DNA of 62,230 bases, the filler included, from Nemertoderma westbladi (lineage: Eukaryota > Animalia > Xenacoelomorpha), in the NCBI GenBank assembly GCA_032718475.1. It is 3 parts of 3 records of this genome, joined end to end, with 100 filler letters (N's around TTAATTAATTAA, not from the genome) between each part and the next. Parts side by side here need not be neighbours in the genome. Positions count along the whole stretch, not along the records: positions 44,405 to 62,230 come from JAUCBJ010007558.1; 2 more parts are not named here. One strand, given 5' to 3'. Of the stretch, positions 19,624-49,379 are shown in pieces. A program made the translations under genes and the position numbers. The notes under the pieces are model-generated. The model worked only from the letters and a program-made list of their open reading frames with translations, had not been told where the DNA came from and searched no databases. The number at the start of each line of letters is the position of its first letter. The first letter of the stretch is position 1.

Positions 19624-22297
19624 TTGATTTTCGTTGGAAACAATTTTTACTTGAGGGAAGTTGAACTTTTGAAGGAGTTGAGCTTGAGCCATCTTGAAGA
19701 AAATATAATATTATGAATAACAATAAATGTATTATAACTTTAAATAAAAAGTAAAATGGTCAATAATATTTTTGTAAGTAAAGTTCAAAGCATTGGATGG
19801 GGGTTTATAAGGGAAAGGATAACCAATGAAAATAAAAGTGAAGCTTGTGGGAACCAATAGAAATAAAAAGAGAGAGAGAGAGATGCGCTATTGGATTGAG
19901 GGAATAATAAACACATTTCATTGGGTTAATTAAATGTAAAACATTAGTTAGGTTGGGAAATGGGATGAATTGAGAAGCGGGGGAGTGCGTCAGCGAAAAG
20001 TGTGTGTAATGAATGAATGGGTATGTTAATTAATGTTATGCTAGAGCTTCCGAACAAATATTTTAGGCCTGGTATGCGTGAGGGGTTAGGCATATTTTCA
20101 AACAATAAAACTGCAGTATCTACTGTAGTAAAGAGATGGTTGGGAATTAGTTTGACACATGGCGTTTGGGCGATGGCTTTGTTGTTGAGCTAATATGCGC
20201 GTGGGCTGCTTCGCAATACAATGCGAAAGAATGCAAACTATTGCAAGAGCAGATGTTTATTCTAATTTCTCGGACGAATTGATGTAATAACGAAGCTGAA
20301 GGTTTGAATAATTTAAGCTCTGAGGCATGCCCCATTCACGCAGGCCCCATTCACGCATTGATGTTTGGGTTAGTCATGCTACGGTTAATAAGAGCCCGAG
20401 CAGCCACAGATTATTGAGGGATGACTCGGGGCCAAACTGGGGCCACTTTATTTTTGTGTGAGGGTAATTTATGTTTTGGGTTTCGATTGTGTCTTTTTAT
20501 TTAATTATACCTTTACCTACTGTATGGCAAAAATAATACAAATGTATTGTATATTGTATTGTATATTTCGTTTGCTGTAGTACAATTTATTCATCGCGCG
20601 TCCCTATCTGATTGATTTGTATCAAATTAAATTGCCTTTGGCAACATTATTTGATACAAATCGATTGATTAAACAATTAATTAATTGTTTAATCGACCAA
20701 TTAATTAATTGATTAATTAATTAATGACCTACTTAACACCCAAGGTGTGAAGTTGGTCTAACTGTCGCCAAGGATGGCAAACCATTACTACTCTAGCCGA
20801 TGAGAGAGCGAGAGGGGATGCCAGCGAACTGTTCGAGCTATGGGAATGTAGGGGTATGGAGCCTAGTGTAGTGTACATAGGGCCATACTTAGTTGATGCC
20901 AGGGGAGTTAAGTTAGTGGGTTGGGCGGGACCGCACGAGGGCGAATCCGAGGTTAACTCCGAGGATTCGGTCTCGTCGGTCGGAGGAAACCCCGGAGAGC
21001 GGGGGAAAGTTAGTAGGACAGAGGGGCGACGGGAGTCCGTCGCAACCGATAAGTCTGCTACATCCTCCGCAAAAGAAAGAAGGGTGCGGGAGATAAATCT
21101 GGCGTGTCAGCGTGAAGAGCGCGAGGCAAGAAGGGCGAGTGAGCGAAGAGAGCGCGAGGCGAGACGACTTGAGAGGGTTGCGAGAGAGACAGAGTTGGCC
21201 GAGCAAGGTTTGCGAGTGGATGGAGAGAGAGGAACGTTTGTTAATACCCCACTTTCAGGGACTGGACGACAGACCCAAGACTGATGTGACCGTACAGGCG
21301 GGGGGGGGGGGGGGGGGGGTAATAACAATAGGCTAGGAAATGTTAATATTAATAGTACTGTAGTAGATAACCCTAATCCCTTTATTACAGGAAATATTTT
21401 ACCCGGTAATTTAAATTTAAATTCAAATAATAATATAAATTCAAATATTCAGAATAATCAAAATAATTCGAATAATAATTTAAATTTAGAAAATAATAAT
21501 AATTCTAATTTAAATAACCTAAATAATAATATTGATAACGGCACTATTAATACTAATGTAGACACAGGTAGTCCGGCCAACGAGGGCCTGCAAGGCCACG
21601 TAGTCAGTAGGCAGGGAGCAACGGGGGTGGGAAACCCCAATGAGAGCCTGGTAGGCCACGCAGTTAGTGCGCAGAGAGTGGCGGGGTTGAGCCAACCCAA
21701 AGGGGGCCTGGTAGGCCACGTAGGTAGTAGGCAGGAGGTGGCGGGGTTGAGTCAACCCAACAAGGGCCTGGTAGGCCACGCAGTGGTAGAGGGAGAGGTG
21801 GGGGTGAATAGACCCAACCGCAGTAGAGACAGTGCGTCGACTAGAGAGGGGTGTAGAAGTGGAGTAAGGGATAGTGAAGTAAGATGTGGCCAGTGGGGGG
21901 GGGGGGGGGCTACGGGCGCCCCACCACAGAAGATTAGTGGCGAGGGAGGGGGGCAGAGAATTCCCCACAAGAGGGGTGTGGAAGTGTAGTAAGAGTTAGT
22001 GAAGTTAGAAGTGGCGAATGGGGGGGGGGGGGGGGGGGCTACGGGCGCCTCACCACGGAAGATTAGTGACGAGAAAAGGGGGGTAGAGAATGTCCGGCAA
22101 GAGGGGCGCAGAAGTGTAGTAAGAGATAGTGAAGTTAGAAGTAGCGGGTTGGGGGGGGGGGGGGCTACGGGCGCCCCACCACGAGAGATTGGTAGCGAGA
22201 GGGGGGGGGGGCAGAGAGTACCCCACAGGCGTCGACGGATAATGCGCGGGCCGAATTAGGTAAACCGCAACACCCGACGACAGAGAATAGTAGGGGG

Positions 22298-23113
22298 ATG
22301 GCGAGTATCCCCAGAAGTGTCCAGCCGGACAGAGTAGAGTCAGATGTTAGCGCCGAGAGTGGGCGAACAACAAAACGTCGAGCCCAGTCAGAGGAGAGAG
22401 GAAGATTAGTAGAGTTTAACCGAGAGGTCGAAGAGAGAAGAAGTGAAGATAATGGAAGAGCCATTGCTAGGAGCAACCGAAGTGCGAGGACGGATAGCGA
22501 GCCGTCGATAGTAGAGATGGAGTTAGGGAGTCAGTGGGGTCGAACTTCGGGAGCTTGCCGTCGCCCCGGAGAAACGCACCGCACGCCAAGAGAGGGGTAC
22601 GGGACGTACCGATACAAAGTCGTGAACAGGAGTGGGGATCGAAGAGAAGCTTCCCGATGGGATATAGCTGTCGATCGAGAGTACGGTAGTCGCGGGGAGA
22701 TTCGAGATTTGCGAAGATTAAACTTCGGTTCGGAAGGGCACATGCAGACTGCAGCACATACTGTAGGCCTTACTGCACATACTATTATAGGCCATGCTGG
22801 GAGAGATAGAGTAGGCGATAGGGCAGCATGGACGACGGGATTAAACCCGGAAGTTGCGGAGTACATACCGGTAGGTAGGCGAGAAGTAGATAGGCCTATA
22901 TCGGTACCGGTACAGCAGCATGATTATAATATCCAGGGGCACAACAAAGACCCGGTTGAGGGGGATATTGCAGATAGATGGATGGGCCCCAATATATTAA
23001 CATCAACCCCAGTACCAAACATAACACTGGTGGGGGGGGGACAGGGTGACATTCCCCCATTACAAAATATCCGCAGTATAAACAACCAAGAACAAGCTAG
23101 AGGAAACAAGTAG
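22298..23113 (+). CDS. Orphan R/E/G-rich ORF of the LTR element (segment of a probable gag-like ORF broken at poly-G runs)
   Basis: Homologous to ORF 43685-44212 (-) with only frame-preserving indels. The frame is also open upstream (ASTDNARAELGKPQHPTTENSRG). Confidence 0.45.
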   Translation: MASIPRSVQPDRVESDVSAESGRTTKRRAQSEERGRLVEFNREVEERRSEDNGRAIARSNRSARTDSEPSIVEMELGSQWGRTSGACRRPGETHRTPREGYGTYRYKVVNRSGDRREASRWDIAVDREYGSRGEIRDLRRLNFGSEGHMQTAAHTVGLTAHTIIGHAGRDRVGDRAAWTTGLNPEVAEYIPVGRREVDRPISVPVQQHDYNIQGHNKDPVEGDIADRWMGPNILTSTPVPNITLVGGGQGDIPPLQNIRSINNQEQARGNK

Positions 23114-23260
23114 GGTGAGCTAGAGGAGAAAGATGGGAGAGATGAGAAGGGTACAGGGGGTGCGTTGAACAAAGTAGGGCACGGGCGTGATGACGTGCTT
23201 GATGTAAGAGCAGGGTATGTTAATTAGGGTTAGTATTAGCAGTGTAGAGGTAGTAGTAGA

Positions 23261-23655
23261 GTGGTTGTGGGCACCGCAAGCGCCACGTAGATAGAGGTAG
23301 AGTTAGTAAGAGGGTACGTAGTACCGGTTGTGGTTGTGGGCACCGCAAGCGCCACGTAGATAGAGGTAGAGTTAGTAAGAGGGTACGTAGTACCGGTTGT
23401 GGTTGTGGTCACTGCAAGTGCCACATAGATAGAGGTAGAGTTAGTAAGAGGGTACGTAGTACCGGTTGTGGTTGTGGGCACCGCAAGCGCCACGTAGATG
23501 GAGGTAGAGTTAGTAAGAGGGTACGTAGTACCGGTTGTGGTTGTGGGCACTGCAAGCGCCACATAGATGGAGGTAGAGTTAGTAAGAGGGTACATAGTAC
23601 CGGTTGTGGTTGTGGGCACCGCAAGCGCCACGTAGATGGAGGTAGAGTTAGTAAT
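23261..23655. repeat. 69-bp tandem repeat, about 6 copies, inside the LTR element
   Basis: Period of 69 (CACCGCAAGC at 23272, 23341 and onward). Confidence 0.95.
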
Positions 23656-23769
23656 AGTCCACACAATTAACATACCCACTTTGCCGGCACTCAGAGCGTC
23701 GCGTGCAGGTAGAGGAGTTAGTGAGAGTAGTGAGAGGGTAGGTAGTACCATTAGCTAGAGAAGTTAGTA

Positions 23770-24015
23770 GAAGTAGTAAGAGGGTACGTAGTACCATTAG
23801 TAAGAGAGTTAGAAGTAGTGAGAGGGTACATAGTACCGTTAGTAAGAGAGTTAGAAGTAGTAAGAGGGTACGTAGTCCCGTTAGTAAGAGAGTTAGAAGT
23901 AGTGAGAGGGTACGTAGTACCGTTAGTAAGAGAGTTAGAAGTAGTAAGAGGGTACGTAGTACCGTTAGTAAGAGAGTTAGAAGTAGTAAGAGGGTACGTA
24001 GTACCGTTAGTTGAG
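23770..24015. repeat. 42-bp tandem repeat, about 6 copies
   Basis: AGAGGGTACGTAGTACCGTTAGTAAGAGAGTTAGAAGTAGTA with period 42. Shares the AGAGGGTACGTAGTACCG core with the 69-bp unit. Confidence 0.95.
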
Positions 24016-25447
24016 AGAGTTAGAGAGTCAGTAGAGTTAGTGGAGGTAGAGAGCCAGTAGAGTTAGAGAGACAGTAGAGTTAGAGAGTCAGTAGAGCCAG
24101 GGAGTTAGTAGAGCTAGTGGAGTTAGCAGAGTTAGTAGAGCTAGTGGAGTTAGCAGAGTTAGTAGAGCTAGTGGAGTAGAGTTAGTAGGGAGTAAATGGA
24201 GTTAGCAGAGCTAGTTGACTAGACTTAGTAGAGAGTTAGTAGCGGAGTTAGAGGTAGTAGTAGAATTAGAGTTAGCAGAGTTAGTTAGATAAGAAGTTAG
24301 TAAGTAGATAGTATGATAGCACAGGGGCAAACATGGGTGAAACAAAATAAGAATGAAAGTTAAGAATATCAGGATCACCTCCGAACTACAGAAGGGCCTT
24401 CTAGGTGGCCTTCGGAGGTCTGGTAGACCACCCGGGGCTGGAGGGCGAGTCGGTGTAATACAACAGCCGGCATCTAGTAGACAGGGAGGTGGATACACAA
24501 GAGAGCTGGGAGAAGTTGGAAGCGGATAGACTGGAGGGGAAGCGACTGGAAGAAGTCGCCAGGCGAGAAAGGCAGAGAGAGAGTAGTGGGTAGTAGGAAT
24601 GAAGCGTTATGTAGACGACCATATAATATAATACATATAATAATAATAATTATAATATTATAAAAAAAAATTATATAATAATTCGTATACATATTATACA
24701 GTATGTACCGTAGTCAAGCACAACCTTTTCCAATTAGCTACTGGGACTGGGGACTAATTGACTAGGGCGACAGGACGGGACTTAGGCGGCTCCCACTAAC
24801 ATGATGTACACATGTGTGGGACCCGATAAGTGTGTGGTCATTGAACAACAGGGCGGAGTTCAGGATTTACTGTGAAAGCTCGTATAATGCGGGATAAGAA
24901 TCGTGCAGATGGGCACTACCGGGATACGAGTAGGACGGGCACTTGGTGGGACCACAGGCGTGGAGAGTGAGGAGTATGAGAGGAGTATGAGGGGAGTATG
25001 AGAGGAATGTGAGAAGAGTATGGAAGGAGAACGCAAGAGAGATAGCGAGAAGTGGTGTGGAGATAGCGCAGGGAGAGTGTGGGTGCAATTCAAGTGTGGG
25101 GGGGGGGGGGAGAAGCAAGAGGCAGAGTGAGGGACGAGGAGGTCCGAGAGTATGTAAGAGTTAGGGTGAAAGTGGAGGAGAGTTAGGGCGAAAGTGTTGG
25201 GAAAACAAATATTGTGTGAGTGAAGCGCACGATCGGCCCAACACGGGACGCCAGATGTCTTGGTGCAAGATAGGTAGAGTTGTACCAAGACGGGGTAGTA
25301 ATATCATACCCATAGGGAGCGGCCTGGAAAGCCAGCTCCGGAAAAATAGTTCCACCCCACACCCGATACTAGATCGGGATCCAGCGGAGTTGTAGCGCAC
25401 TAGAGGTGGATGCTATCTTCTCACCGGGAAGATAGCATGGGGGGGAG

Positions 25448-25992
25448 TGTTAGCGAATCAATTCCGCTAGCCACCCACAAGAGTTAGCTTTAAGCAATAT
25501 TGGGAACACGAGGTTGATTGCCAATCAACCTCGTACCACCCCAACTAAATGGGAAGGAGAAACCCCAGAGAACACACACACAATAGGGGTCAGGGGTTAC
25601 ACCTCTGAGAGAGAGGGAACAACAGCAGCGGGGGGGGGGGGACACACCCCCTCCGAGCAGAAGGCGAGAAGTGGGAAATCAGCCAATGGGGGATAGGAGA
25701 GGCATCAGCCAAGTAATAGGGCCAACCCAGTATATTACCGGTTGGTGCTTTCTCATTTATCCAGTTATCTCAGTACAGTCACGGCAGTACGGTGACGTTT
25801 AAGACCGTCACCGCCGTCACCATATTACCGGTTTATTCAGTCATTACGTGCTATCTGCTATTATCTTATCTATACTGTATTTTATATATTCTATTATCAT
25901 CGGAACAATAACGAACCAACAAACTCTTTCACTCACGGCGGGGACGCGTACATAAACCACCAGATAAATCTGGATCCCTGGATCCCGTCACA
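25448..25992 (+). repeat. 3' LTR of copy A (about 545 bp)
   Basis: Starts TGTTAGCG directly after the PPT and ends GATCCCGTCACA. Recognisably similar to the LTR at 36411-37046 at both ends. Confidence 0.7.
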
Positions 25993-26786
25993 CTCGATAT
26001 TTTTCAAGTCTCGATATTTTTCACCATTACCCCACAAACGACTCAATAAGCACCGGGAGAATATCCAAGAATATTGGAAGTCCCTATCTGCCCCTCCTAA
26101 CCCTAACAAACCGAACGTGGTGACCAGCAACCCAGAAGTCATCCTTCTGGAACACTTCGCCCAGTGTCGGAAATATACTGTTACGTGCGTATTAACGTGT
26201 AGTTACGCGGCGTATTCATACCGAAGCCATCCTTATTAATTTACACTGCCACCCCTCAACAAAGTTATTCCAGCATTATACTAAACCATTTTGCTTTGTA
26301 ACTTTATTTACTTTGTAAAATATTAGCGTACCATCAATGGGGATGTTATTTAATTTTATTATTTTATGCGGCCTATTTCAACAACTGCTCACGTAGGGGG
26401 GGGGGGGTGTGGGTGGGGGGGGGATCGAATCCCAAAATTCATGAATTTCAGTTTGGACCCCTTAGACCTCTTCTAATAAGTGAAAAGAACTTTTGGTGCA
26501 AATATCTTTAAAAAATATTAAGAATTAGTAACTCCTTGCTATTTTTGTCAAAATTTGACATTTGCGGGAAATATTGCTACTGTATATTACCAATTTGCGA
26601 TAGAATTACAGAGGTGACTAAAATATATAGATCGTTCAAACATACTTTATAATAACCCTTACATTGATAATTTTGAGTCACATAAGGGCAGCTCAAGTTT
26701 CAATTCATTCTGAGATAAGAGGGTAAGATCTGTTACCGGTACTTAAATTAAGAGTTAAACTTCCCCAGTATAAGTTAGTAAGTTAG

Positions 26787-29779: not shown

Positions 29780-31730
29780 ATGTTAGTCCTGAAAAGGACT
29801 GTTTGGGTTTTTGGGACAGTTGTTATCGATAATAACATGCTTGTTTAATGCTATTCTATACACAGGATATTTCCCAGAAGGATGGGCACTCGGGCTTATT
29901 GTTCCACTGTACAATAATAAAGGTTGCAGATTGGATCCGGGAAATTTCAGAGGTATAACATTGTTAAGTATTCTTGGGAAGTTGCTAACTTCGCTAATAA
30001 ACAGCCGACTCACTTGGTGGGCTGGGTGTTTCAGGACTATTATAGAGTCCCAGGCATGATACCGCCCAGGTTATTCCACAATAGATCAGATCTTTATATT
30101 AAATTCGCTTATCGAACACTACGTTTTGAATGATGGGAAGAAATCTCGGCTTTATTGTAGTTTCATAGACTTTAAAAAAGCATTTGATTCGGTGGACATA
30201 AATGCCCTGTGGATTAAATTGATCTCGCTGGGATTTGGTGGTCGCTTGTTCCAGTTAATTAAAAGCATATACTCAAATGTGAAGTGTTGTGTTCGGAAGG
30301 ATGGGATATCAAATGAGTTTACATGCTTGCTGGGCGTGATTCAAGGTGAATGCCTGTCGCCTTTACTGTTTTCACTTTTTCTCAATGATCTCGAGAGTGA
30401 ATTAGAGAGTGGTCAGGTGGCGGGTGTTGTCATGGGATACGTGAAACTCTATTTACTTTTATATGCCGATGACATTGTTCTCTTGGCCAACACACCTCGG
30501 GATCTGCAGTGCACTTTGACATGTCTAGAACATTATTGTGATTATTGGTCCCTCAGAGTAAATCTTTCTAAGTCGAAGGTAATCGTTTTTAGGAAGGGTG
30601 GTTTGGTCTCCAGTCAAGACAGGTGGTTATACAAAGGGGAGGAGCTTGAGGTTGTAAATCACTATACATATCTGGGAATTGAGTTGTCTTCTACTGTCAA
30701 ATTCGCATTAGCGCAGTCTGCGTTGGGTGATCGTGCGAGGAAAGCGCTATTCATGCTGATGCGTTATATTGCATTTTTCCCTAACATAAGTTTTGGAATG
30801 GCAAGAAATCTTTTTAACACTCTTGTAAAACCCATAATGATGTATGGGTGTGAGGTGTGGGGTGTGGGGTTTTCACCAAGCCACGGATATTGAACGAGTA
30901 AGTCTACGATTCATTAAATATTTTCTAGGTGTCAAAATATCAGCCCCTAATTTCGCAGTATATGGTGAAACTGGCATTTTTCCTCAAGACATTGAACGCA
31001 AGATTAGGATAATCAAATATTGGCTGAAAATTTTGAAACTTCCACGATATCGTCTAACCAAGGCATCCTATTTATTTCTTCTGGACGATGTCCTAGTAAG
31101 GAGAGCAACAAATTGGGTTTCTAGAGTGAGGGACCTGTTGAATGCAACAGGATTTTCTGGAGTGTGGAATGCCCAGTTAGTGGAATCTGAAACCTCCTTC
31201 GTCAACAAGTTCAGGTCGAGGTTGCAGGATATTTTCATACAAGAATGGTGGACAGATGTTGAGACATCCCCAAAAGGTACTCTTTATTGTAAAGACTCCT
31301 TTGCCTGTGAGCCCTATTTGGACTGTCTGAAGGGTCATGACTTATTGCGAAGATCAATTTCGCAACTACATTGTTCATCGCATCATCTTGCCATTGAGTC
31401 TGGGAGATGGTACGAGATTCCGAGGAATGACAGAGTATGCCGTTTATGTGGAAACCGTGACATGGTTGAGTCGGAATATCATTTTCTTCTAGTCTGTACG
31501 GCGTATTCAGAAATCCGTGAGAAATACCTTGGTCATCATTTCGCTCTTCATCCATCTCTTTTAAAATTCCAGGACTTATTCCGCAGGACTCGCAGCAGCA
31601 ATGCAACCTGGTCCATCAAACTCGGAATGTACATCATTATGGCATCCAGAACTCGGGAGGCTCGATTGGGAAGTTTTGGGCAGCTGGGGTTGGTATAAGG
31701 TATAAGTGAGAAAAATTAACATTTAATAAA
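29780..31730 (+). mobile_element. 5'-truncated LINE (RTE-X-like): reverse transcriptase and C-terminal Zn-binding region, frameshifted
   Basis: PGNFRGITLLS, FIDFKKAFDSV, GVIQGECLSPLLF, LLLYADD, YLG, then SSHHLAIESGRW..RVCRLC..ESEYHFLLVC. Confidence 0.92.
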
Positions 31731-36410: not shown

Positions 36411-37046
36411 TGTACCGGGATCACGGGATCCCGACCGGATTTATATACTACGCGTCACCGTGTTTTACCTTAGAGATTGTTGCTGGTGATATCTAGGCCG
36501 AGGCCGTTGCAGTGAAAACAATAAGGGTTGATTGATGTTTCTTGATATTTGGATAATAGTATCAGTAATAACACAGTAAGAATTGCAGTTAAGCAGCATT
36601 GATATGAGATGGATACAGGTAGATGTATGTGTGTTGGTGACGGTGACGATGACGATGTAAAATATCACCGGTCTGCACTAGACTGATGACTGAGTAACTG
36701 AACCAGTATGGTAATATGCATTGACAATATATGTAATTACTCCTACGCTACTGTGGCCTTTCATCCAGTGGATGCTCTCCCCCGCCCCTATTGGCTGATA
36801 ATCTACTTCACGCCTCTCCCCTCTCTGGGAGTGCTTCTCCCCTGTTGTTGGCCCCTGCTGGTTGTTTCCCCTTTCGAGGTGGATTGACCTCTAACCTCCC
36901 TTTGTGTGGCTTTGGGGTTGTGTTGTCCCCGGTGTTGGATTGTGATACGAGATTGGTTATTGCCAATCTCGTATCTCCAATATTGCTGAAAAGGTGCCAC
37001 TTCCCAACTTTGTGAGGGTAATGCGGCGGAATTGAATCCGCTCACA
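36411..37046 (-). repeat. 3' LTR of copy B (about 636 bp)
   Basis: Minus strand: poly-G PPT, then TGTGAGCGGATTCAATTCCGC ... GATCCCGGTACA. Preceded by the same TGCTATCTTCTCACCGGGAAGATAGCA hairpin as copy A. Confidence 0.7.
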
Positions 37047-38019
37047 CCCCCCCCCCCCCCCCATGCTATCTTCCCGGTGAGAAGATAGCATCACCTCTAA
37101 GTGCGCTTCAATTCCGCTGGAACCCGATCTACTATCGGGTGTGGGGTGGAGTTCTTTTCTTGGAGTCGGCTTTCCAGGCCGCTCCCTCTGGGTATGATAT
37201 TACTACCCCTTCTTAGTGCAACCGAAACCTATGTTGCACCAAGACATCTGACGTCTCTGTTTGAGACAATTGTGGAATCCTCACACAATTTTAAAAACTC
37301 TCTCACTCTGAACTCTAACTTCTCACTCTAACTCCACTCTAACTCCACTCTAACTCCACTCTAACTCCACTCTAACTCCACTCTAACTCCATCTAACTCC
37401 ACTCCACTCTATCTAACTTCACTCTGCTCGCTTTTACTCCACTCTGATTCGCACTCCTCTGACTCTCTCTCATCCTGTCAACACCTCCTCTCCATACTTC
37501 CCTGTGCTCCTCTCATACTCCCAAAGTGTCAACTTTTCTTATGCTACCATACTGTGCTATTATTCTATCTACCTTATCTAAATCTTACTTCTTGCTTACT
37601 ACTTACTCTACTAACTCTCTTACTACTAACTCTATTCTACTAACTCTAATTCTACTAACTCTAACTCTACTAACTCTAATTATATTAACTCTCTAACTCT
37701 TTACTAACTCTAACTCTACTAACTCTAATTCTACTAACTCTCTACTAACTCTAACTCTCTTTCTACGTGGCGCTTTCGGTGCCCACAACCCCTCTACTAC
37801 AACTTTCTTCTAACTTCTAACTACTAACTTCTAACTCTACTCTTACTAACTTCTACTAACTTCAACTAACTTTCTAACTACTTACTGACTTTCTAACTTT
37901 CTACTTACTATCTTCTACTAACTTTCTCACTTCTACTTACTATCCAACTTCTACTAACTTTCTTACTTACTTACTAGTTAACTTCTACTTACTATTACTT
38001 TCTAACTTTCTACTTACTT

Positions 38020-41000
38020 TATTATTTTATTATTTTAATTATTTTTATTATTTATATTTCTTATTCTTTTTTAAAGACAATCAACACCCCCATACCGGGG
38101 TAAATATATTTATCGGATTCCATCTTATTGCTCTGGTTATAAACGCAACTGTTAAACAATGATATTGAAAGACGATAGGCTACTCTATAAAACATATTTC
38201 ATAATATTTATAATAATTTACATATGTACAGTAAACTTTGGTTCAATGTGTGAATAAAACAATTTATTATTATTAAATTAAATATAATCAACTCGTTGAT
38301 AAAAATAATTCAAAAATATCGTGCAAAACGGATTCATATATATAACTCAAGCAGCCAACGAATTTAGGCTAGGACAGGCAGGACATCGAAGGGCGTGATA
38401 TCTGTTTTCACAGTTCCCACCACAGAAACTACAGATACAGTCTTTTTTTGGGGAGTGGAATGAGTTCATAGTGCAGCAGATCAGATGGTGAAACCCGTGA
38501 GATGTTGCCCTACAGACAGCATGACGATTTCGTTGTCCAGGTCGTTTCCAGTTGAAGTTTTGAAAGGCAGGTCCCTCTAGGTAGCCCTCCCTTATAAAAT
38601 TATTCATCCGTTCAGCTCTATAGTTCCTATATTTTAGCGCAGTAGTCTCGTTAAAAATATTTGGGTTCCTATCTAAAATATATTCTATCAAAGTTGGTTC
38701 ACCAAGTAAGTTATGCACAAATGTTGACGATGAAGATATGTGTAGACCTAGCATACGTTTAATAAAAGTAGATTTCGTTTTATCGATTTCTTTAAGGTTT
38801 GACAATTTAAGATAGATACCATACGCAGGTAGGCCATAAGTAATCATCGGAAGCACTTTACCATTAAAAATCGTTAAACCAGTATCCGTAGATAGTAATT
38901 GCAACTTAGTAAAAGAACCTATTAACTTATAAGCTTCAACATTTTTACTATTGATATGGTTTGTAAAGCACAACGACGACTGTACTGTTACGCCTAAGTA
39001 TTGGTATTGTTTTTCTACATTAACTAGATTACCATTGTATGTAAATGTATCATTTGTACTTAAACGACCACCTTTTCGAAATTTAACTATTTTAGTTTTC
39101 ACCAAGTTCACGTCCATTCCTTTTTTCCTGCACCATTCGAATAACGCGTTCAATGCTGACTGAATATCGTCTCTTCTCTTTGAAAAGAATACTAAATCAT
39201 CCGCATAAAAAATAGATAATATTGTAGCAACAACTGCACGTAAAGCACTGACTAAATCTGCTATAAAAAGTAAAAAACATGTTGGCGATAAACAATCGCC
39301 CTGTAAAATACCCCGAAGTTGTTGTATGATATTTGAGAATCGTAAACCATCAAAAATTTGAAAACTGTTATTTAATATTGACTTAATAAGATCAAAAGGT
39401 TTCCCCTTGACACCTAATGTATACAATTTGTATAGAAGTAGGGCTCTGGGCACAGAATCAAAAGCCTTTCTAAAATCTACAAAACAGGCATATACAATGC
39501 GTTCATTTCTAGAACTCGAATTAAAAGCCTCACTAATATATCTAAGTAACTGTGTAATAGCTTCAACTGCACTCTTTCCAGGCAAAAAACCAAATTGTTC
39601 AATAGGGATCTGGTCTCTTAGATTAGAAATTATACGTTTATTCATTATCGCGGTTAATAGTTTCAACATTATATATGTTAGAGCTATTCCACGATAATTA
39701 TCTGGGTTATTTAAGGGGGGGGTATACCCCCCCATGAACCTTTTTTTAAAATGGCTGTCAATTAGTGTTAAATGATAATATTGCTATTTTGTCATGGTCA
39801 ACCACTGTATGGAAGGCCAAATAGCATTTATAGTAAAATTTAAAAATTTGTAGCCTCCCCCTAGCGGCTGGCGGCGGAATTAAAGATTTCACTAAAATTG
39901 CTACTAGTCCCTCAATTTTGGTCCAAATTTCTTGAAACCAACTTTTTTGGACTCAGCGTGATTGACTCTACAAAAGTTATCTTATAGAATTTTTAATTAG
40001 CCAATTTTATTTTAATTAATTAATTTAATTAATTAATTATCATATATTTTAGAAAAAATGGTAATATTTATCAAAATTCCATAAGATAACTTTTAAAGAG
40101 CTTCCAAAGCTCGTTCGAATGAGCCAAAAACGAAGAAAATTGGTTGAAAAATGACGTAGGAGTAGTAATTTGAAAATGAAAAATGACATTCCGAGAAAAT
40201 GCCCTTCAAAGTTTAAACCGTCCCGCCAAAATTGGCTGTCTGTGTTCTGGTTGGTTAATTATTTCTGGCACGAATGATGCACACCAACGAGCTAAAATGT
40301 TCATTTCTGGGGTTTTCGGGGTCACTGATTTCATTTCCGATGTCAGTTTTAATTTTTAGTGGAATCTAGTCTATCTGTCTGTCTGTCGGTCTTCTGTCTT
40401 TCTTACAATTTGACGGACAGACCGTCGTACGGAAAAACAGTAATAACTCGAGAACTGAAAGAGGTCTCACTAAGCGGTTTTCAGATTTGTAATCCTCATT
40501 AAATTCTGCTCTAGATGAGATAAAGAAACAATAATTTGAAAATTTTACCTGAGGGGGGGTATACCCCCCCCTTAACGCACCCTTTCCTTTATATAAGATT
40601 TTGATAAAACTGTAAGACCACGATAGATCCCACGTTTAAACAAAAATTAAATAACATCATAATAAAAACCGCGAGAAAAGGAAGTGATTGCTTAATGTGT
40701 TCATAAAATAAACCGTCGGGGCCACTGGCATTCTTGTTGGATGCATTTCGAGCTGCTAGATAGATCTCCTCCTCAGTAACTGGTTCATTATACCACTCAG
40801 GCGCTTCGCGCTCCTCTGGCTATGTGCTCGGTACGACTGGGCATTCGTGTGGATTGTTTTCAGTTCCCAATAGAGCCTGGAAATGTTCGCCTAGACGGTC
40901 GACTCCAAATCGGTGCCACGGTTGGCGGCTTCCGGTCCTTAAAAAGAGACCAAGGGTTGATCTCAGCATCAGCTACCCGCTTGAGTACGATCTCCTCCTC

Positions 41001-42880
41001 ATACGATTCATTCTTCGCTTTCTGTAACTTCTTATACTCTTTCCTAATAGCCCAGTAATGAAGGCGTGTTGTATCGGTTGTTCTCAATCTCAGAGCATCC
41101 ATAACTTGCAACTTTGCGGATCTACACTCGTCATCAAACCACGGTTTTCCCCGAAACCGTTTGATTGGTTTAGGAATTGTAGATTCCTTTATAATTGTTG
41201 TCAGCAAGGTCTCCGCAACGTTAATATCAGTCTTGTTCTGAAATACGTTTAATAGATCAGTGGATGCGATTGTAATGTGTCAATGTTTATTTGGCGAGAT
41301 AATGGGGTTGGTCTTGTCATATATTCTGGTGTCACACTGTTTATCTTGAGTATGGTAGACAAACGTTGCGGTGTGGGCATTATCGTAACTCTTGGCAGAG
41401 CTCTTGATATTATACCATAGTATTTCGCGAAAATCAAGTCAATGACGCTTTCGCCCTGGGGTGATATATACGTAGGGATTCCAGGTGACTCAAATTCAAT
41501 GAGGTTGAAACAAAGGCTGTTTAAACTTTCTATAAGTTCTGATCCACGATTTCTGGAGTCTAAACGGCAGTTGAAATCACCAGCTAATAGTATATTGTCG
41601 TCATCCTGAGCAAATGTAAGTGACACCGAGATGTTTAAAACAATTTCGCTAATAGGTGTGTCAGCTTCGAAATAGAATAAAATAAAGCAGCAAGTTGTCG
41701 TTCTGCAGACCATGTAACTTTCACACTTAGTTAATACACCCGGCTGTAGACTTGGTTTTACCAAAATGGCAAGACCACCCTGGGGCCGGCCACGTGGGGG
41801 TTTCTTTGCGGGCTGAACAAAGGAATAATAGCCCTGCACATCAATCTGGTCCTCCGTAAATAGAGTTTCATTAAATAGTAATACATCGTGATCTTGACAG
41901 ATTTCCGCATCGGTTAGGTTATCACGAATAAAGCTCAGTCCTTCCATATTCCATAGAGACAGCGATATATTTAGTCAGTCAGTTTCACTCGCATTTTCAA
42001 CTCTCTGGTTTTCTTCTCTGCGAGCGACTCCCGTCTGTCCACCCCAATCGCGACGGCGTGGTCGTAGTCCGTATTTCTCCCATTCAGCATCAGACAGTTT
42101 GTACCATTTGATGACTATGCCATCCTCCCAGAGGCCAGGATTCATGAGAGCATGTCTCATATCCCAGTCTGCAATAATGTGAAAACTTCTTGAGATAGAC
42201 CCTTCATAGACGTCCTTTGGTATAACTTCGTCAACATCAATTCCATCCTCTCTTAGATTCGTAACGATTTCCGACGACGTCGTCAGTTAAGTCGATTCGG
42301 CTAACTAGATTGACATTTTCGAGGGCGACTGCTTGGTTGGGTGGTAGACCTCCTCGGGGCAGCCCGGATGGAACTCCCGGTGTCTGTTCGCATTCCTCGT
42401 ATCGGTTGCGATCGAGCTCGACTGTTATCGGGCACAGGCCGGCGAACCATCCCTGTGTCGGAAGGTGTTTCGGTTTGCCGCTGCGGTTCCTCGCACCTGG
42501 TCGGTTCAGCCGGAACCTAAGTGCTAACGGTGGCCACGTCATAAGTACGTCTCGGTAAGAAGTTGTATTCGTATTTGTAGAACGGGATTCCCCTTGAGTT
42601 TGCTGTGATCTTGTTTCGGTCTTTTGCTCGCTTATCTTTATTATTTCATTCTTTGCCGTTAATGATTCCTGGAGTGCTTCACCTAGCTTTCCTAATGATA
42701 TAGTATACATTGCAGTCATCGACATCAATCTATCTGTTACTATTCGCTCTTCCTCCAGGGTAACAGATTTCTTTGACTTTATTGCCCGGATGGTTGATAG
42801 GACTTCATCCCGAAAACCGATGAACTCCTCCGCCATCGGTATAGCCTAGACTTTCTGTGTCCTTCAGCTTGATTAATAGC
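38020..42880 (-). mobile_element. Nearly full-length APE-type LINE (ORF1, then ORF2 with EN, RT and a Cys/His C-terminus), decayed and split by a MITE
   Basis: ORF1 pieces at 42237-42836 and 41975-42160 (SFHII..LMNPGLWEDG). EN 41249-41964 (WNMEGL, LFNET, AGDFN, SVIDLIF). Linker KPWFDDEC and SGPDG. RT 38347-39710 (NYRGIAL, FVDFRKAFDSV, GILQGDCLSP, FYADD, YLG). A/T-rich tail near 38020-38070. Confidence 0.92.
39715..40571. mobile_element. 857-bp MITE with TTAA TSD and GG...CC termini (Kolobok-type)
   Basis: TTAA|GGGGGGGGTATACCCCCCC ... GGGGGGGTATACCCCCCCC|TTAA (39711-39714, 40572-40575). Excision restores the LINE frame LYKGKGALNNPDNYRGI. Confidence 0.88.
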
Positions 42881-44304
42881 ATAAAATTATAATTTAATTA
42901 TATTATACCGGTATATATATAAGAGTCCTGTAATCGTCAGAAAACAAATACCAATAAATTCCCTTATAAAAATCACCCTTATTCGAATGTTGGAAGGGCG
43001 TCTCGCCCTCATTCCCACCCCCCTCAGTCCAACATTTGGACGACTAAACTCTAAGGGGCCCCTTCTTCCAGTAGGCACTCTCCCACTGTCCCCCTATACA
43101 TCCTCTTATCCTTCGCCACACTCTCTTTGCCAATTCCATCCCTCTAGGAATTGATTCTCCCTCTTCTGCCACCCTAAAATCGGGTCTCTCCGCCGCCTTC
43201 TTATTTTCCTTATTTCCTGGCAGCAAAATGCCACCCCCACCTTGTCGTTCCCGGCGGCAGAATGAAAAGAAACGGAAAGAACAGACAAAACAGAACGAAC
43301 AATAGTAATCCTATCCCTTTCCATCCTGTCTTCTTACTCGACCTCCCCCTTTTCGGTATGCCTCTCAACCGGACCGGCATCTCCTCCGGACACTCCTCTG
43401 AACACTCCTCCGGACACTCCTCCGGACACTCCTCCGGACATTCCTCCGGACACTCCTCCAGACTGGTGTCCTCTGGACATCTTGCCGTCCACTCCTCTCC
43501 ATCCCCATACCGATACTTGCTGGGAACATCCTTGTTCCATCCTATTATCTCTAAGTCTTCCGCGTCAAATCCATTCTCCTCCGCCCATTCTCTTGCTGCT
43601 ACTTCTCCTTCTAGCTTATCTACCGTCTATGGTTTCTGACTATGACTATGGTTTCTGTACTGTCTATGGATCTGATCCCGTCGTTCACGCTACCCTATTG
43701 CCTACACTATCTCTCCCAGCATGGCCTATAGTATGTGCAGTAAGGCCTACAGTATGTCCTGCAGTCTGCATGTGCCCTTCCGTACCGAAGTTCAATCTTC
43801 TCGAATAATCCAAGAAGTCCTCCCCGCGACTACCGTACTCTCGATCGGCAGCTATATCCCGTCGGGAAGTTTCTCTTCGATCCCCTCTCCTGTTCTCTTC
43901 CTCGTATCGGTACGTCCTGTACCCTTCTCCTAGTGTGCAGTGCGTCTCTCCGGGGCGACGGCAATCTCCCGGAGTTCGACCCCACTGACTCCCTAACTCC
44001 ATCTCTACTACCGACGGCTCGCTATCCGTCCTTGCTCTCTGGTTGCCCGTAGCAACGATTCTTCTATTCTCTTCACTTCTTCTCTCTTCGACCTCCCGGT
44101 TAAACTCTACTATTCTTCTTCTCTCTTCCGACTGATGTCTTCTCGCTCGCCCACTCTCGGCGCTAACATCTTTCTCTCTGTCCGCCTGGACCCTCCTGGG
44201 GATACTCATCATCCCCCTACTATTCTCCGTTGTCGGGTGCCGCAGTTCACCTAACTTGCCCCGTGCATTATCTGCCGACGCTTGTGGGAAATTCTCTGCC
44301 CCCC

Positions 44305-44404
44305 NNNNNNNNNNNNNNNNNNNNNNNNNNNNNNNNNNNNNNNNNNNNTTAATTAATTAANNNNNNNNNNNNNNNNNNNNNNNNNNNNNNNNNNNNNNNN
44401 NNNN
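44305..44404. other. Assembly gap / artificial contig linker
   Basis: N44-TTAATTAATTAA-N44. Confidence 0.98.
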
Positions 44405-45319: not shown

Positions 45320-45950
45320 GATCAAGGGACATTTAATGAAAATGACAGAGGAAAAGATGAAAGAGGAAATGCTGCATTTATAACAGTGCGAAACATCGTG
45401 TTAAAAGGAAGTTTGTGATAGTATTAGGCAGTGAATTAATGCACAAACATCACGTAGTCGGTACGTAGTGCTATATATTATGTAAGTAATATATACTATG
45501 CTCCACATGTGTACTATAAACGTTGAAAATGTTGACTATCAAGGCCTGTTCCGTGGTACAGACAAACAACTGCTTGTAGGAAGGTAACGAAGTCGTTTTG
45601 ATCCATCCATGACTGACTTGTAACACAAAACCTCCTGCGAGCCCTTTTAGATTTCCCCTGCAGCATTTCAACGGTGCTGTAGTAATGATGACATTAGTTC
45701 AATGAAACAATGATAAAGAACTATGTAGGTAAAGGAGTAGATACGATGCTACCGCAGATCGAAAATTTAAATGTTAATTGTACTAGTTTGCGTTTTTCTA
45801 TTATGAAAAACTGGTGGGGATGTTCAGGGGTGTTATAAATTCGATAAGTTTCGCACAAAGTAGCAGCAGTTTTAAGCATTACGACGCGGGCATTATTTTC
45901 AAGGGTTTTTAAAGCTAAAGGTGTAATATTATGGTTTTGTTCAGAAATTG

Positions 45951-46053
45951 AAAAAATGAGAAAGCGCGTCACCGGGGGTTGAACCAGCGCTATACGTACG
46001 TTTCAGCCTATAAGGCCTCATCAGTAGCGCTAACCAGTTCAGCCACTTGCCCC
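45951..46053 (-). ncRNA. tRNA-like Pol III cassette (A box, B box, T6 terminator) containing a type I hammerhead ribozyme at 45986-46031
   Basis: Minus strand: GGGGCAAG TGGCTGAACTGG TT AGCGCTA CTGATGA GGCC TTATA GGCT GAA ACGTACGT A TAGCGCT GGTTCAACCC CCGGTGACGCGCTTTCTCA TTTTTT. Confidence 0.8.
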
Positions 46054-46860
46054 TGACAATCACTCTCCCACAATCACCATCCCAGTTATTTATTTATGCA
46101 GGGTTGGTGCGCGAAAAAATTGTTGGTCTAGAAACAAACAATTGAATAAGGGGTGCCGGATTGTGTTTTTTGTAAAAACACGAGGAACGGTCGAAATGGC
46201 GCGTTTAAGTAAGAGCGGGAAGCCAATTTTGAAAATCGACTGTGATTGGCTGCTAAATATTTGACGTCATAACGCTGATCTGATAATTTCTTATCTTGGT
46301 TTCTATGGATAGTGATTTTCGATCCATTCAAATACACAATAAATCTTAATCATTTCACACGTGGCATTTATTAATTTAAAGCGGAGATTCTTGCGCGTCT
46401 TTTGACACTACAATTAATTAAATTCATGTTGAGGAACATGGATAAAATTGGCTAGTTGATATTACCAAAATCTTGTGAAATAGATTTCGGTGTGTGAATC
46501 TGATGACGATCCATTTATGGGGTTTGACGGATTGTTATGACTGACATTGTTGAGAGTTATCTGATTGTTAAGAATGAAGGAAAATATACTGTAGGCCTAG
46601 TGTGTTGAACCGTAACGCGGTAATAGGCTGTATGTATAATAAAGATAACTGAAAATCGAGAACATAAGAACAGTATCAAATTTTGGCTTTATAACAGACC
46701 GATTTTGGTAAATTATTGACCTGTCAAGTTTTGCAAACGAATAATCGAATGTATCATGGCATTCTTAACCTTCTGTTTCATCTGAACGTTGAAACATTAT
46801 TTCTGGAATGTTTAGTTATATGAAAGTACAGAATTGCTAGCTAATTGGAACAGTACAAAC

Positions 46861-46946
46861 TATGCTGCTCGCAATTACTGATTCGATTCCTTTACTCGCG
46901 AGGAAAGAATACAAAAATATTAGAACGCTGTAGATTCCTTTAACGT
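46861..46946 (-). pseudogene. Short diverged duplicate of the MINDY3 coding sequence
   Basis: Matches 48768-48836. Encodes KGIYSVLIFLYSFLASKGI versus KGVYGVLLLLYSFLASKGI in the gene. Confidence 0.8.
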
Positions 46947-48005
46947 TCTAGAATATCTATAAACAGTAATAAATTATTGGCATGCTTTACAAGAACAAAA
47001 ATATACATTAAAAATGAATTGAAATTTTCACGAAATGTTTGATTTTTTAATTTACTTAAATTTTCATTGTGTTTTGTCATGAAATTTATACCCCCTCGTT
47101 AGCTAGTAAATTCAGGCTGCATGGGCTATAGTTTGACGCCTTGGTTCACTATAGCTGATAAAGGTGGTATTATACCATAAAGCTCGGCGGTTGCCATGTG
47201 TTGTCTCCCAGCTTATGTTTAGTGCTTGCTGAAGTTGTCTTTTCTGGTGCTCTCTATCTATGACCAAATGTACTGGAAGTCGTCAACTTTCCGTCAAAAT
47301 TAAAAATAAATATATATAGAATCAGGACATTTAGCCCAAAATTAAGCCCTTTTTGCTATAGTGATAAATACAGGAAAACCCCAAAGTCAGCAATGTTGGT
47401 TAATTACGTTTAATGTATGAGTGTATAGAGCTTCACCCTTTGTGGCCGTCCTCATTGCTCAATCCAGTACAATTACGAATAGTAATGGCGTCAATGGTCG
47501 AATGCTTTCTTGAAGTCCACAAAAGTCAGGACTGCGAGGAGATGCTTTCACTTAATCCCTTCAACCAGCCTCCTTAGAGCTAGCACCTGAGCTATTAATT
47601 GTTGATCTATTTGGTCGAAATCCATTAATGTAATAAAATAATATTCAATTTAAGTGCCCAAAAAATCTGCAGTTTATGTGGTATATAATGATTAAGTTTG
47701 ACGTACAATTTAGAAATTTTGAACCAGCAATATAATGTTGTGAAATTTTCCGTGGACCAAAAGCACTTTTTAGGTAGGTTTCGCGTGTGTTGCCTTTTGA
47801 AAATAAGACACCCCAGAACTAAAAAAAACAGGAAGAAGTAAATTACTTCGGCTAAAAAATATTGCCGATATAATTAATTACTTTGTTACACTAATAGTTA
47901 GTAAAGGACGAGATATTACAAATAATTAGTTAGATAAGTATATATATACACTATACAGTATACAGATACACTACACTATATGTAGGCTAACTAATAATAA
48001 AATAG

Positions 48006-49379
48006 CTAGTTAATGGAAGGGTCGCAACCATCCACCCATCCCACTTCTATTCCATCCCATTTAGTAAGCAGACACTTACTAATGTCCGAGTCCCTGACCA
48101 GCTGATCAACCCCCAGTCTTTCGTACACAGTCGCTCTACCGACACTGTAAGCAACCAAGCGAACCCCGCCCGCCAATCCGTTGTAGTGATAGACCGTGTG
48201 GGAGGGGGAAACCTCCCGGAGGAATTCATCATGAATCGGGAAGAACTCCTGGAGGAAGTTATTTCGAACGATAACCCCAGTGTCATCGGGGTCAAGGCGA
48301 CTAGCTAACGTCGTTACTAACTCGGCGGGTTCGCTAACCAGTTCACATTTAATTAAAAGTTCTCGAAGATTATCAGTTAGAATAAACCCAGAGGATTCCT
48401 CAGTCTGCATCGAAGAGAAGTTCCTCGCAGCTAAAGCACGTGGGGTTTCTTCGCCTAGAAACTTAATATCATCGGAGAAAAATAAAGTTAAATGAGTTTC
48501 GCTTCCAATAATCCAAATAGGAAAGTTTGGTTCCTTCAAAAAGGATCCGACTTCCAAGTATTTCTTGGACTCGAGGAGGGAGAGGAAACCTATGTGTGAA
48601 CGGTTCGGGATCCCGGGTAAACTGAGTCCGCCGATGGTGCGACTCGGTCCGTTAAAGAGGTTCGTAACAGTCGACCCTGTCAGTAACAGGTTCACGATGC
48701 ATTGCGATGCGTGCCCGTAACGAGCGTCTATAAGCTGTTCGCAATCACCGGCGATGTCTGCGGTCACATTACTGATTCCTTTACTCGCGAGGAAAGAATA
48801 CAATAATAATAGAACGCCGTAGACCCCCTTAAAGTTAGGTAAAATGCAATGGAGCGTTTCGTCTAATTCCTCAACAGTGACTGGAGATTCTACAAGACGA
48901 CTATGGAAATCAGAATAATTCGGGATTATTTCATCTACCGGTGATTCTGTGGCACTACCTGTACCGGTTTCGTTTGATTCTGAATGAGTACCTGTATTAT
49001 TGTTAGGGTTGATAATAACCCTTTCTAGCTCAACATTGCTTCGGTTTAATTGTTTTTCTAACGGTTTTATAGTGAATATATGGAAATTAGGGGAGGAAAC
49101 GTCTTTAACTAAATGTAGAAGTTCCTTCAGCGTAAATAGTAGTATTTTATCCAGCTGTTCCTCTGAAGCGGAACGCCAGTTCTCCAACGGGCTCGTAAAT
49201 ATTAGGTTTTTTATTAGATAGGCCTGTATGGGAACGATTACGGAACAAGGTCCACCCTGTAGTTGCAGCACAGCAGTGGGTTCGCTATGACTGAATGTAA
49301 TGCCTTGGCACCATCGTTGGAATATTTCTTCGCTAGGATTGGGTCCCCAAACTAGTTTAGATAATGGATTATGTGCCAT
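48006..49379 (-). CDS. MINDY3: Ubiquitin carboxyl-terminal hydrolase MINDY-3 (FAM188A), single-exon ORF of 457 aa
   Basis: LVWG..IFQRWCQG..FS.SEPTA..Q.QGGPC (catalytic Cys), YGHASQ, IGFLSLLE..YLEVGSFLK.P.FPIWIIGSETHLT (catalytic His), EF-hand-like LDPDDTGVI, VYHYNGL, CLLTKW and the terminal PSIN. Confidence 0.95.
   Translation of the reverse strand: MAHNPLSKLVWGPNPSEEIFQRWCQGITFSHSEPTAVLQLQGGPCSVIVPIQAYLIKNLIFTSPLENWRSASEEQLDKILLFTLKELLHLVKDVSSPNFHIFTIKPLEKQLNRSNVELERVIINPNNNTGTHSESNETGTGSATESPVDEIIPNYSDFHSRLVESPVTVEELDETLHCILPNFKGVYGVLLLLYSFLASKGISNVTADIAGDCEQLIDARYGHASQCIVNLLLTGSTVTNLFNGPSRTIGGLSLPGIPNRSHIGFLSLLESKKYLEVGSFLKEPNFPIWIIGSETHLTLFFSDDIKFLGEETPRALAARNFSSMQTEESSGFILTDNLRELLIKCELVSEPAELVTTLASRLDPDDTGVIVRNNFLQEFFPIHDEFLREVSPSHTVYHYNGLAGGVRLVAYSVGRATVYERLGVDQLVRDSDISKCLLTKWDGIEVGWVDGCDPSIN

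Follow-up and report, generated by a model that had tools for sequence, protein, structure and literature searches.

A type I hammerhead motif nested between the A and B boxes of a tRNA-type promoter in a high-copy repeat family of Nemertoderma westbladi

A complete type I hammerhead motif lies between the A and B boxes of a tRNA-type RNA polymerase III (Pol III) promoter in Nemertoderma westbladi (assembly GCA_032718475.1), within a 62,230-nucleotide stretch of DNA that is referred to here as the window. The motifs belong to a dispersed, high-copy repeat family. The element is likely a retrozyme or a retroelement resembling the Sm-alpha repeats of Schistosoma, a reading to which we assign a probability of about 0.5, and its RNA is predicted to self-cleave once two hammerheads have paired. 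In the schistosome ribozyme repeats a Pol III promoter and a hammerhead stand side by side, whereas here one is set within the other: 12 bases are predicted to act both as promoter in the DNA and as ribozyme helix in the RNA, and cleavage would take place within the promoter. The element thereby offers a compact natural case in which two constraints act on one sequence, and it belongs to a young family whose subfamilies differ in predicted activity. It bears on how animal retrozymes are transcribed, and on whether dimer-dependent cleavage is required for their spread. The RNA, of about 120 nt, is assayable in a day; should cleavage fail, the element would be merely an odd SINE-like repeat.

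Results

The element reads on the minus strand (Table 1). The original prediction of an A box, a complete type I hammerhead, a B box and a T6 run was borne out in place and order by the sequence and by our descriptors, and the palindromic stem III and the GUA triplet with its predicted cut were likewise located correctly. The hammerhead follows the type I rule, with CUGANGA, GAAA and UH arranged around three helices and its ends lying in helix I. Helix I of 6–7 bp, helix II of 4 bp and helix III of 2 bp with a palindromic 4-nt loop correspond to the canonical dimensions in PMC4209133. T6 follows the B box at a distance of 20 nt, and a Pol III start likely lies within the 5' leader.

Table 1 Features of the element and of its surroundings in the window.
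Feature	Position	Strand	Basis and remarks
AT-rich box	46097–46087	minus	sequence; outside the repeat
14-nt tandem duplicate (86%) of 46056–46069	46070–46083	minus	at the 5' junction of the copy; family sequence is left here
Family-matching stretch of the window copy	45922–46071	minus	depth profile and loose ends
5' leader	46071–46046	minus	predicted pairing with the T6 region closes a long rod
G run	46053–46050	minus	sequence
A box, tRNA-type	46045–46034	minus	sequence; 46041–46036 predicted to pair with the B box (0.61–0.82)
Hammerhead helix I, 5' strand	46031–46025	minus	sequence; occupies the place of the tRNA D-stem 3' strand
Catalytic core CUGAUGA	46024–46018	minus	sequence; no variant of at least 1% in run X1
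Helix II	46017–46014 with 46008–46005 (4 bp), 5-nt loop 46013–46009	minus	sequence
Catalytic core GAAA	46004–46001	minus	sequence; no variant of at least 1% in run X1
Palindromic helix III	46001–45994	minus	monomer: 2 bp and 4-nt loop; two molecules: 8-bp duplex
Cleavage triplet GUA	45995–45993	minus	sequence; predicted cut 45993/45992
Hammerhead helix I, 3' strand	45992–45986	minus	sequence; position 1.7 (45986) is U
B box, tRNA-type	45985–45975	minus	45985–45980 predicted to pair with the A box, extending helix I
Segment complementary to GAAA and helix III	45970–45960	minus	constrained folding; predicted 'off' fold
T6, Pol III terminator-like	45956–45951	minus	kept in the family; no variant of at least 1% in run X1
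3' tail beyond the terminator, shared by the family	45950–45922	minus	depth; loose ends at 45937, 45931, 45922 and 45916
MINDY-3 deubiquitinase, single open frame of 457 aa	48006–49379	minus	frame scan
LINE-type element, APE endonuclease and reverse transcriptase	38347–42845	minus	frame scan
LINE-type element, reverse transcriptase fragment	30060–31698	plus	frame scan

With descriptors written after the sequence had been seen, and a general box consensus with which the B box agrees in 11 of 11 letters, the window contains a single type I hammerhead match, at the element (46031–45986), and one A-box/B-box pair, nested at the same place. Searched on both strands with the same descriptors, 200 dinucleotide shuffles of the window gave 1 hammerhead match and 0 A-box/B-box pairs. 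The motifs of a hammerhead between A and B boxes are a confirmed feature of this DNA. The hammerhead models of Rfam, proposed earlier as a check, do not call the ribozyme: the element has 0 matches at the gathering thresholds, and below them only Hammerhead_3 appears, at E=1.9 and 16.3 bits against 48.5, with no row for Hammerhead_1. Likewise, the element had no match to the tRNA model up to E=10, and ARAGORN reported 0 genes. As neither program called a cloverleaf with an anticodon arm, a functional tRNA gene was discarded as a candidate. The sequence CUGAUGA, which begins 2 bases after the D-arm remnant, resembles a tRNA anticodon loop, and the core may derive from the parent tRNA rather than from an insertion.

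Folding of the 103-nt piece was no better than that of its shuffles (z 0.04). For two pieces whose ends we chose ourselves, the 127-nt piece (46071–45945) formed one rod with z −2.26 (3 of 200 shuffles as good) and the 150-nt piece gave z −1.63 (10 of 200 as good). The stretch from 46071 to T6 is predicted to form a single closed rod. Helix I is dominant in the ensemble, with pair probabilities of 0.61–0.92, and pairing of A-box with B-box bases is predicted at 0.61–0.82. The two boxes are thus predicted to form the outer part of helix I, with a GGUU(A) bulge as loop 1. The GGUU bulge would lie 6–7 bp from the core, matching the site of loop 1 in canonical type I hammerheads. In hammerheads, a U at position 1.7 and a terminal A in loop II play a role in the contacts between loops 1 and 2. 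Both bases are present in the element, but U1.7 is predicted to be paired (0.86–0.87).

In the monomer, helix III has a predicted probability of 0.01–0.02, while the self-duplex of the palindrome amounts to −9.8 kcal/mol. The active fold of the monomer lies 2.8 to 3.6 kcal/mol above the ensemble, whereas the dimer is at about −5.3 kcal/mol per pair for the window copy and for the majority form, the dimer energies being nearest-neighbour sums that include neither tertiary contacts nor a concentration term. Helix III is therefore predicted to be too weak in the monomer and to form an 8-bp duplex in the dimer, and the calculated energies agree with the earlier proposal that this helix needs a dimer. 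According to the RNA ends and the base at 46038, the corresponding dimer value for the subfamily with G at 45997 ranges from −2.7 to +3.5 kcal/mol, so that dimerization is predicted to gain little or to lose.

Mutually exclusive tRNA and ribozyme folds, as originally proposed, did not emerge, since no cloverleaf is called and helix I dominates; a tRNA/ribozyme switch was accordingly rejected for the window copy. The alternative fold that we obtained is of another kind, pairing the 3' segment at 45970–45960 with GAAA and helix III. Its calculated height above the ensemble is 2.2–8.3 kcal/mol in the window copy and the A forms of 45997, against 0–2.2 kcal/mol, depending on the RNA ends, in the G forms. 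The A/G alternative at 45997 may constitute a natural on/off variant pair, in which the G form is predicted to gain a core-blocking fold.

The repeat family was studied in the contigs of four public runs (X1–X4) of organism A, which represent at most 3 samples from 3 studies and one of which is possibly the source of the window; family contigs were limited to at least 80% likeness, and variant figures are depth-weighted. In X1, 2,265 contigs fall on 210 bases of the element region, and depth rises from 31–72 in the unique flank to about 90,000–500,000 over 45928–46039 (X1–X3), in line with the original claim of a repeat family. Summed depth divided by that of the unique flank gives 8,006, 4,052 and 2,450 in three runs, values that are upper bounds owing to overlapping contigs and not copy numbers; we put the family at between some hundreds and a few thousand copies. 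The family had 0 contigs in runs X6 and X7 (organisms B and C) and X8, which is no proof of absence.

At 45922, 45–51 contigs in each of X1–X3 have loose ends with long flanks that agree at 0.46–0.49, and such disagreeing flanks indicate many dispersed copies with a common 3' end. This end is sharp, lies about 10 nt past the match of the window copy, and closes a tail of short repeats with an AT-rich end, in which the length of the short repeats varies (loose ends at 45937, 45931 and 45922). The 5' side of the family continues beyond the window copy: 33 contigs run on at 46071 with shared letters (agreement 0.82) and 13 at 46058 (agreement 0.67), extending the family sequence by at least 30 nt. 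Shared sequence therefore covers at least 56 nt upstream of the A box and 30–40 nt behind T6, and the shared extensions at both ends imply a unit of at least about 190 nt, which extends past the predicted Pol III unit at either end. The family is hence longer at both ends than the 103-nt cassette, and the notion of a Pol III unit of about 100 nt as the repeat was given up.

Within the window the element is single. None of 11 joints in X1 contigs is a unit-length step back, although a spacer absent from the window would hide such a step, and two 19-letter motifs from the flanking consensus of the family had 0 matches in the window. The window copy shows no target-site duplication (the longest words shared between its flanks are 6 nt and lie off the junctions), and neither a 4-bp duplication nor a terminal inverted repeat. 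The AT-rich box noted earlier is present upstream, but it lies outside the repeat, is covered by no high depth and is not part of the family; as a family promoter it was rejected on the same grounds. Further upstream, 46100–46137 and 46186–46250 and beyond belong to another high-copy repeat, with a depth of 25,000–95,000 in X1–X3 and its own dispersed end at 46100; judging by loose ends, the window copy of that repeat seems to lack an internal piece.

Variants of at least 1% were listed at 13 places in X1. Two of these, at which the window copy is the outlier (46012, G in 98–99% of the family, and 45949, C in 90%), were set aside. The remaining 11 polymorphic places comprise 0 of 13 core bases, 1 of 24 helix bases, 1 of 23 box bases and 9 of 46 free bases (core and helices against free bases, Fisher p=0.037 on small counts), and the only polymorphic helix base is a wobble. 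The core and stems are thus conserved across the family. The B box, the 5' strand of helix I and T6 carry no X1 variant of at least 1%. Changed CpG bases number 0 of 8 within the hammerhead, compared with 4 of 6 on the 3' side of the B box (p=0.015); counting the family CpG at 46005, the former becomes 1 of 10 (p=0.036). The pattern suggests selection on the copies that spread. Covariation in stems I and II, proposed earlier as a check, was not seen: no pair is altered in both of its bases among the 13 listed variants.

The ribozyme and A box together hold four polymorphisms. Position 46011 is a base of loop II; 46038 is A or G in the A box, with box and helix pairing both kept; 45997 introduces a U-G wobble into the dimer palindrome at 2.5–14.3%; and 46005 gives either G-C or G-U at the base of helix II. 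The G-C pair, proposed as ancestral, is the majority form, with C in 58–79% of depth in the four runs. The G-U pair accounts for 21–42% of family depth, and its interpretation as decay of the window copy had to be dropped; nearly private to this copy are instead the loop II change at 46012 and the change at 45949. Because G12, the partner base of the CpG at 46005, is invariant, G-U looks like a subfamily and not like random decay. The family is young.

Run X4 differs in some details. Among the variant rows listed (40 of 112), 7.8% A-to-G is found at core position 46018. One 145-nt contig (record 28, on 45923–46052) reaches a depth of 1,108, compared with 20–40 for single-looking contigs there; it combines a 4-nt insertion beside the core with a change at 45991, which together keep two core-adjacent pairs. 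The same insertion occurs in one contig at a depth of 16–20 in X1–X3. The contig may represent a subfamily amplified or enriched in one sample, X4 being a run that we guess to be DNA and that has no unique-flank cover.

The window consists of animal DNA rich in repeats, and a scan of 34 of its 65 frames of at least 100 aa showed an EML exon, a fibrinogen domain, MINDY-3 and two reverse transcriptase frames. The intronless MINDY-3 gene stands 1.9 kb upstream of the element on the same strand and is at most 40% identical over its full length to the best animal proteins listed; it is an intronless gene or a retrogene. The EML6 exon is at most 72% identical to the animal matches listed. A small fragment of the MINDY-3 gene is duplicated downstream: 63 nt at 46885–46947 are 89% identical to 48774–48836 inside its frame. 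Both reverse transcriptase frames go with APE-type endonucleases, and one of them is preceded by a frame for such an endonuclease. A strand-skewed region occurs twice in opposite orientation (20611–26239 and 36785–44356), with inverted matches of 22206–22841 to 44304–43675 and of 25208–25692 to 37292–36785; it adjoins the 5' side of the LINE and could be either a long 5' part of that LINE or a further large element.

Discussion

The retrozyme cycle, as described, comprises a multimeric transcript, cleavage as a dimer, joining by tRNA ligase and Penelope-type reverse transcription (PMC7229834; bioRxiv 10.64898/2026.07.22.740005). Carried over to the present family, source copies would stand head to tail, and a longer-than-unit transcript would be cut at each hammerhead to yield unit-length RNA. 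This RNA would be circularised by the host tRNA ligase, and a Penelope-type reverse transcriptase would then copy the circle into the genome as monomers that share their 3' end but differ at the 5' end. Copying a re-ligated circle would be expected to leave dispersed monomers with an intact hammerhead in their middle, and many monomer copies have been reported for retrozymes (bioRxiv 10.64898/2026.07.22.740005). Since the predicted cut separates the A box from the B box, a single circularisation step would restore the ribozyme and the promoter together. The boxes and T6 would also yield a Pol III RNA of 100–120 nt, which may serve as a dimer partner in trans or be a by-product; as T6 should stop Pol III, this short RNA could not template the whole unit, and with T6 only 20 nt behind the B box multimers would require read-through or another polymerase. 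T6 is accordingly the weak point of the retrozyme reading. Also against it stand the lack of a tandem copy among those seen, the share of depth with G-U, the lack of a target-site duplication at the window copy and of a Penelope element among the frames scanned, the listed variants without two-sided pair changes, the poor dimer predicted for the 45997 G subfamily and the silence of Rfam.

Other explanations were weighed against the retrozyme or Sm-alpha-like reading. A protein-coding Penelope-like element that acquired a tRNA-type promoter and left mostly 5'-truncated copies could have the present repeat as its 3' end repeat (pseudo-LTR). The open 5' side and the sharp 3' end of the family would suit this, and Penelope end repeats do contain type I hammerheads, mostly single motifs of truncated elements (PMC4209133). 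We nevertheless consider it unlikely, given that no Penelope ORF was present among the 34 frames scanned of the 65 in the window, and that the minimal form usual in metazoan Penelopes has a helix II of 7–8 bp with a bulged base, a helix I of 4–5 bp and an absent or tiny helix III (PMC4209133). The hammerhead here, with helix I of 6–7 bp, an unbulged helix II of 4–5 bp and a palindromic helix III, is instead of the canonical animal type I, and the original designation as a minimal, Penelope-type hammerhead does not hold. A canonical animal type I hammerhead of this anatomy cleaves as a dimer (PMC4209133).

Quite unlikely, in our view, is a small self-cleaving Pol III gene that spread as DNA or via an LTR, as a Helenus-like TRIM solo LTR or the passenger of a DNA transposon, with the RNA of 100–120 nt as its product, matured or destroyed by cleavage. 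Such a route would explain why the unit reaches beyond both the Pol III start and T6, as in Helenus LTRs; the Helenus boxes carry the same conserved letters (PMC10886601), hammerheads sit in the LTRs of plant retrozymes (bioRxiv 10.64898/2026.07.22.740005), and the stretch from 46071 to T6 is predicted as one closed rod. It is at odds with the varying short-repeat length of the 3' tail, with the 3' loose ends listed, none of which begins like a primer-binding site, with a window copy free of 4-bp duplications and terminal inverted repeats, and with the type III hammerheads of LTR retrozymes (bioRxiv 10.64898/2026.07.22.740005). The probability drops a little further for an ordinary tRNA-derived SINE mobilised by a LINE, whose hammerhead would be a captured relic, seldom or never cut, and whose full-length RNA would act as the template. 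The A and B boxes, the dispersed high copy number and the short-repeat, AT-rich tail are those of a SINE, and APE-type LINEs are present in the window. Cleavage would, moreover, destroy a monomeric template, and both the predicted core-blocking fold and the large family share with a weaker helix II would be understandable in a relic. Yet the element does not start at the Pol III start and T6 lies 30–40 nt before its 3' end, and the sequence of at least 56 nt upstream of the A box and behind T6 cannot derive from a Pol III transcript; with these overhangs a plain 100-nt SINE made from its own Pol III transcript is a misfit. The core and helix I are, in addition, free of X1 variants of at least 1%, while CpGs 3' of the B box vary. 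The 3' end of the family matched neither of the two LINE ends in the window, and as neither LINE shares a tail with the element, a partner LINE there was rejected. A chance assembly of motifs in unique DNA, finally, would agree with the silence of Rfam and ARAGORN and with a 103-nt fold like that of shuffles, but its probability is negligible in the face of the shuffled windows and of a high-copy family that keeps the core.

Beyond the retrozyme or Sm-alpha-like reading itself, a more far-reaching arrangement is conceivable, although we regard it as doubtful. A tRNA body would have been rebuilt into a hammerhead, with the boxes doubling as promoter in the DNA and as outer helix I and loop 1 in the RNA; the cut would split the promoter and the circle restore it, and monomers would be Pol III ribozyme genes whose RNA activates other copies in trans. 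Single Sm-alpha copies lose the ability to propagate (PMC6765202). A fusion of promoter and ribozyme, if true, would remove this limit, and the genome would be seeded with many dimer-activated cut sites.

Relation to known elements

The papers listed by searches of the open-access literature include no natural hammerhead placed between an A and a B box, and the excerpts of PMC6155905 and PMC5680766 contain nothing on this layout. The nested layout is likely new, the pairing of a hammerhead with a Pol III promoter being known from Sm-alpha; the family may already have a name in a repeat library such as Repbase or Dfam. In metagenome contigs, a core-plus-B-box pattern gave 120 loci from 16 of 64 parts, of which 0 matched the strict descriptor, none had a BLAST match to the element and 5 matched the relaxed descriptor, none convincingly. 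The same kind of pattern in viral contigs gave 50 loci, with 2 relaxed matches, again none convincing, and patterns specific to the family occurred 0 times in genome contigs and 0 times in viral contigs. One phage locus (L126, 301–351) has a similar 7-mer in a tRNA-like context, where ARAGORN found 0 genes.

The closest known elements are Sm-alpha and Sj-alpha of Schistosoma, likewise high-copy animal repeats, in which a type I hammerhead is joined to a Pol III promoter of tRNA origin (PMC6765202, PMC2770079, PMC8490949). The earlier comparison with Sm-alpha was apt, even though its hammerhead follows the promoter (PMC6765202, legend to Fig. 6G) and its copies often lie in tandem, whereas that of N. 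westbladi lies between the boxes. The described layout sets Sm-alpha further apart from the present element, whose boxes are predicted to contribute to helix I, whose cut would split the promoter and whose B box is closely followed by T6.

The hammerhead of animal non-LTR retrozymes is also of the canonical type I, its helix III short and palindromic as in HHR_Amex1 of the axolotl, and these elements too are non-coding with many monomers (PMC7229834; bioRxiv 10.64898/2026.07.22.740005). Their units range from 150 to 450 bp, into which an element of at least about 190 nt fits if its 5' end follows soon. Retrozymes are known as head-to-tail tandems and circular RNA, features that the retrozyme reading would predict for the N. 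westbladi element; neither 'pol III' nor 'SINE' appears in the main text of PMC7229834. The hammerheads of Penelope pseudo-LTRs are also of type I, dimer-dependent and massively present as single motifs, but they are mostly minimal with a long helix II (PMC4209133), and no Penelope ORF is linked to the present element among the 34 frames scanned in the window. Helenus TRIMs likewise contain a degenerate tRNA-like region with conserved A and B boxes within a longer repeat, and in PMC10886601 the hammerhead is named once, in the title of a reference. The LTR ends, primer-binding site and 4-bp duplications of Helenus are found neither at the window copy nor among the loose ends listed.

A counterpart in layout comes from engineering. 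In tRNA-embedded hammerhead cassettes built for Pol III expression, the hammerhead occupies the anticodon region, flanked by the A and B boxes; these constructs are man-made and act in trans. The element of N. westbladi differs from them in being natural, in bearing its own cut site and in forming a mobile repeat.
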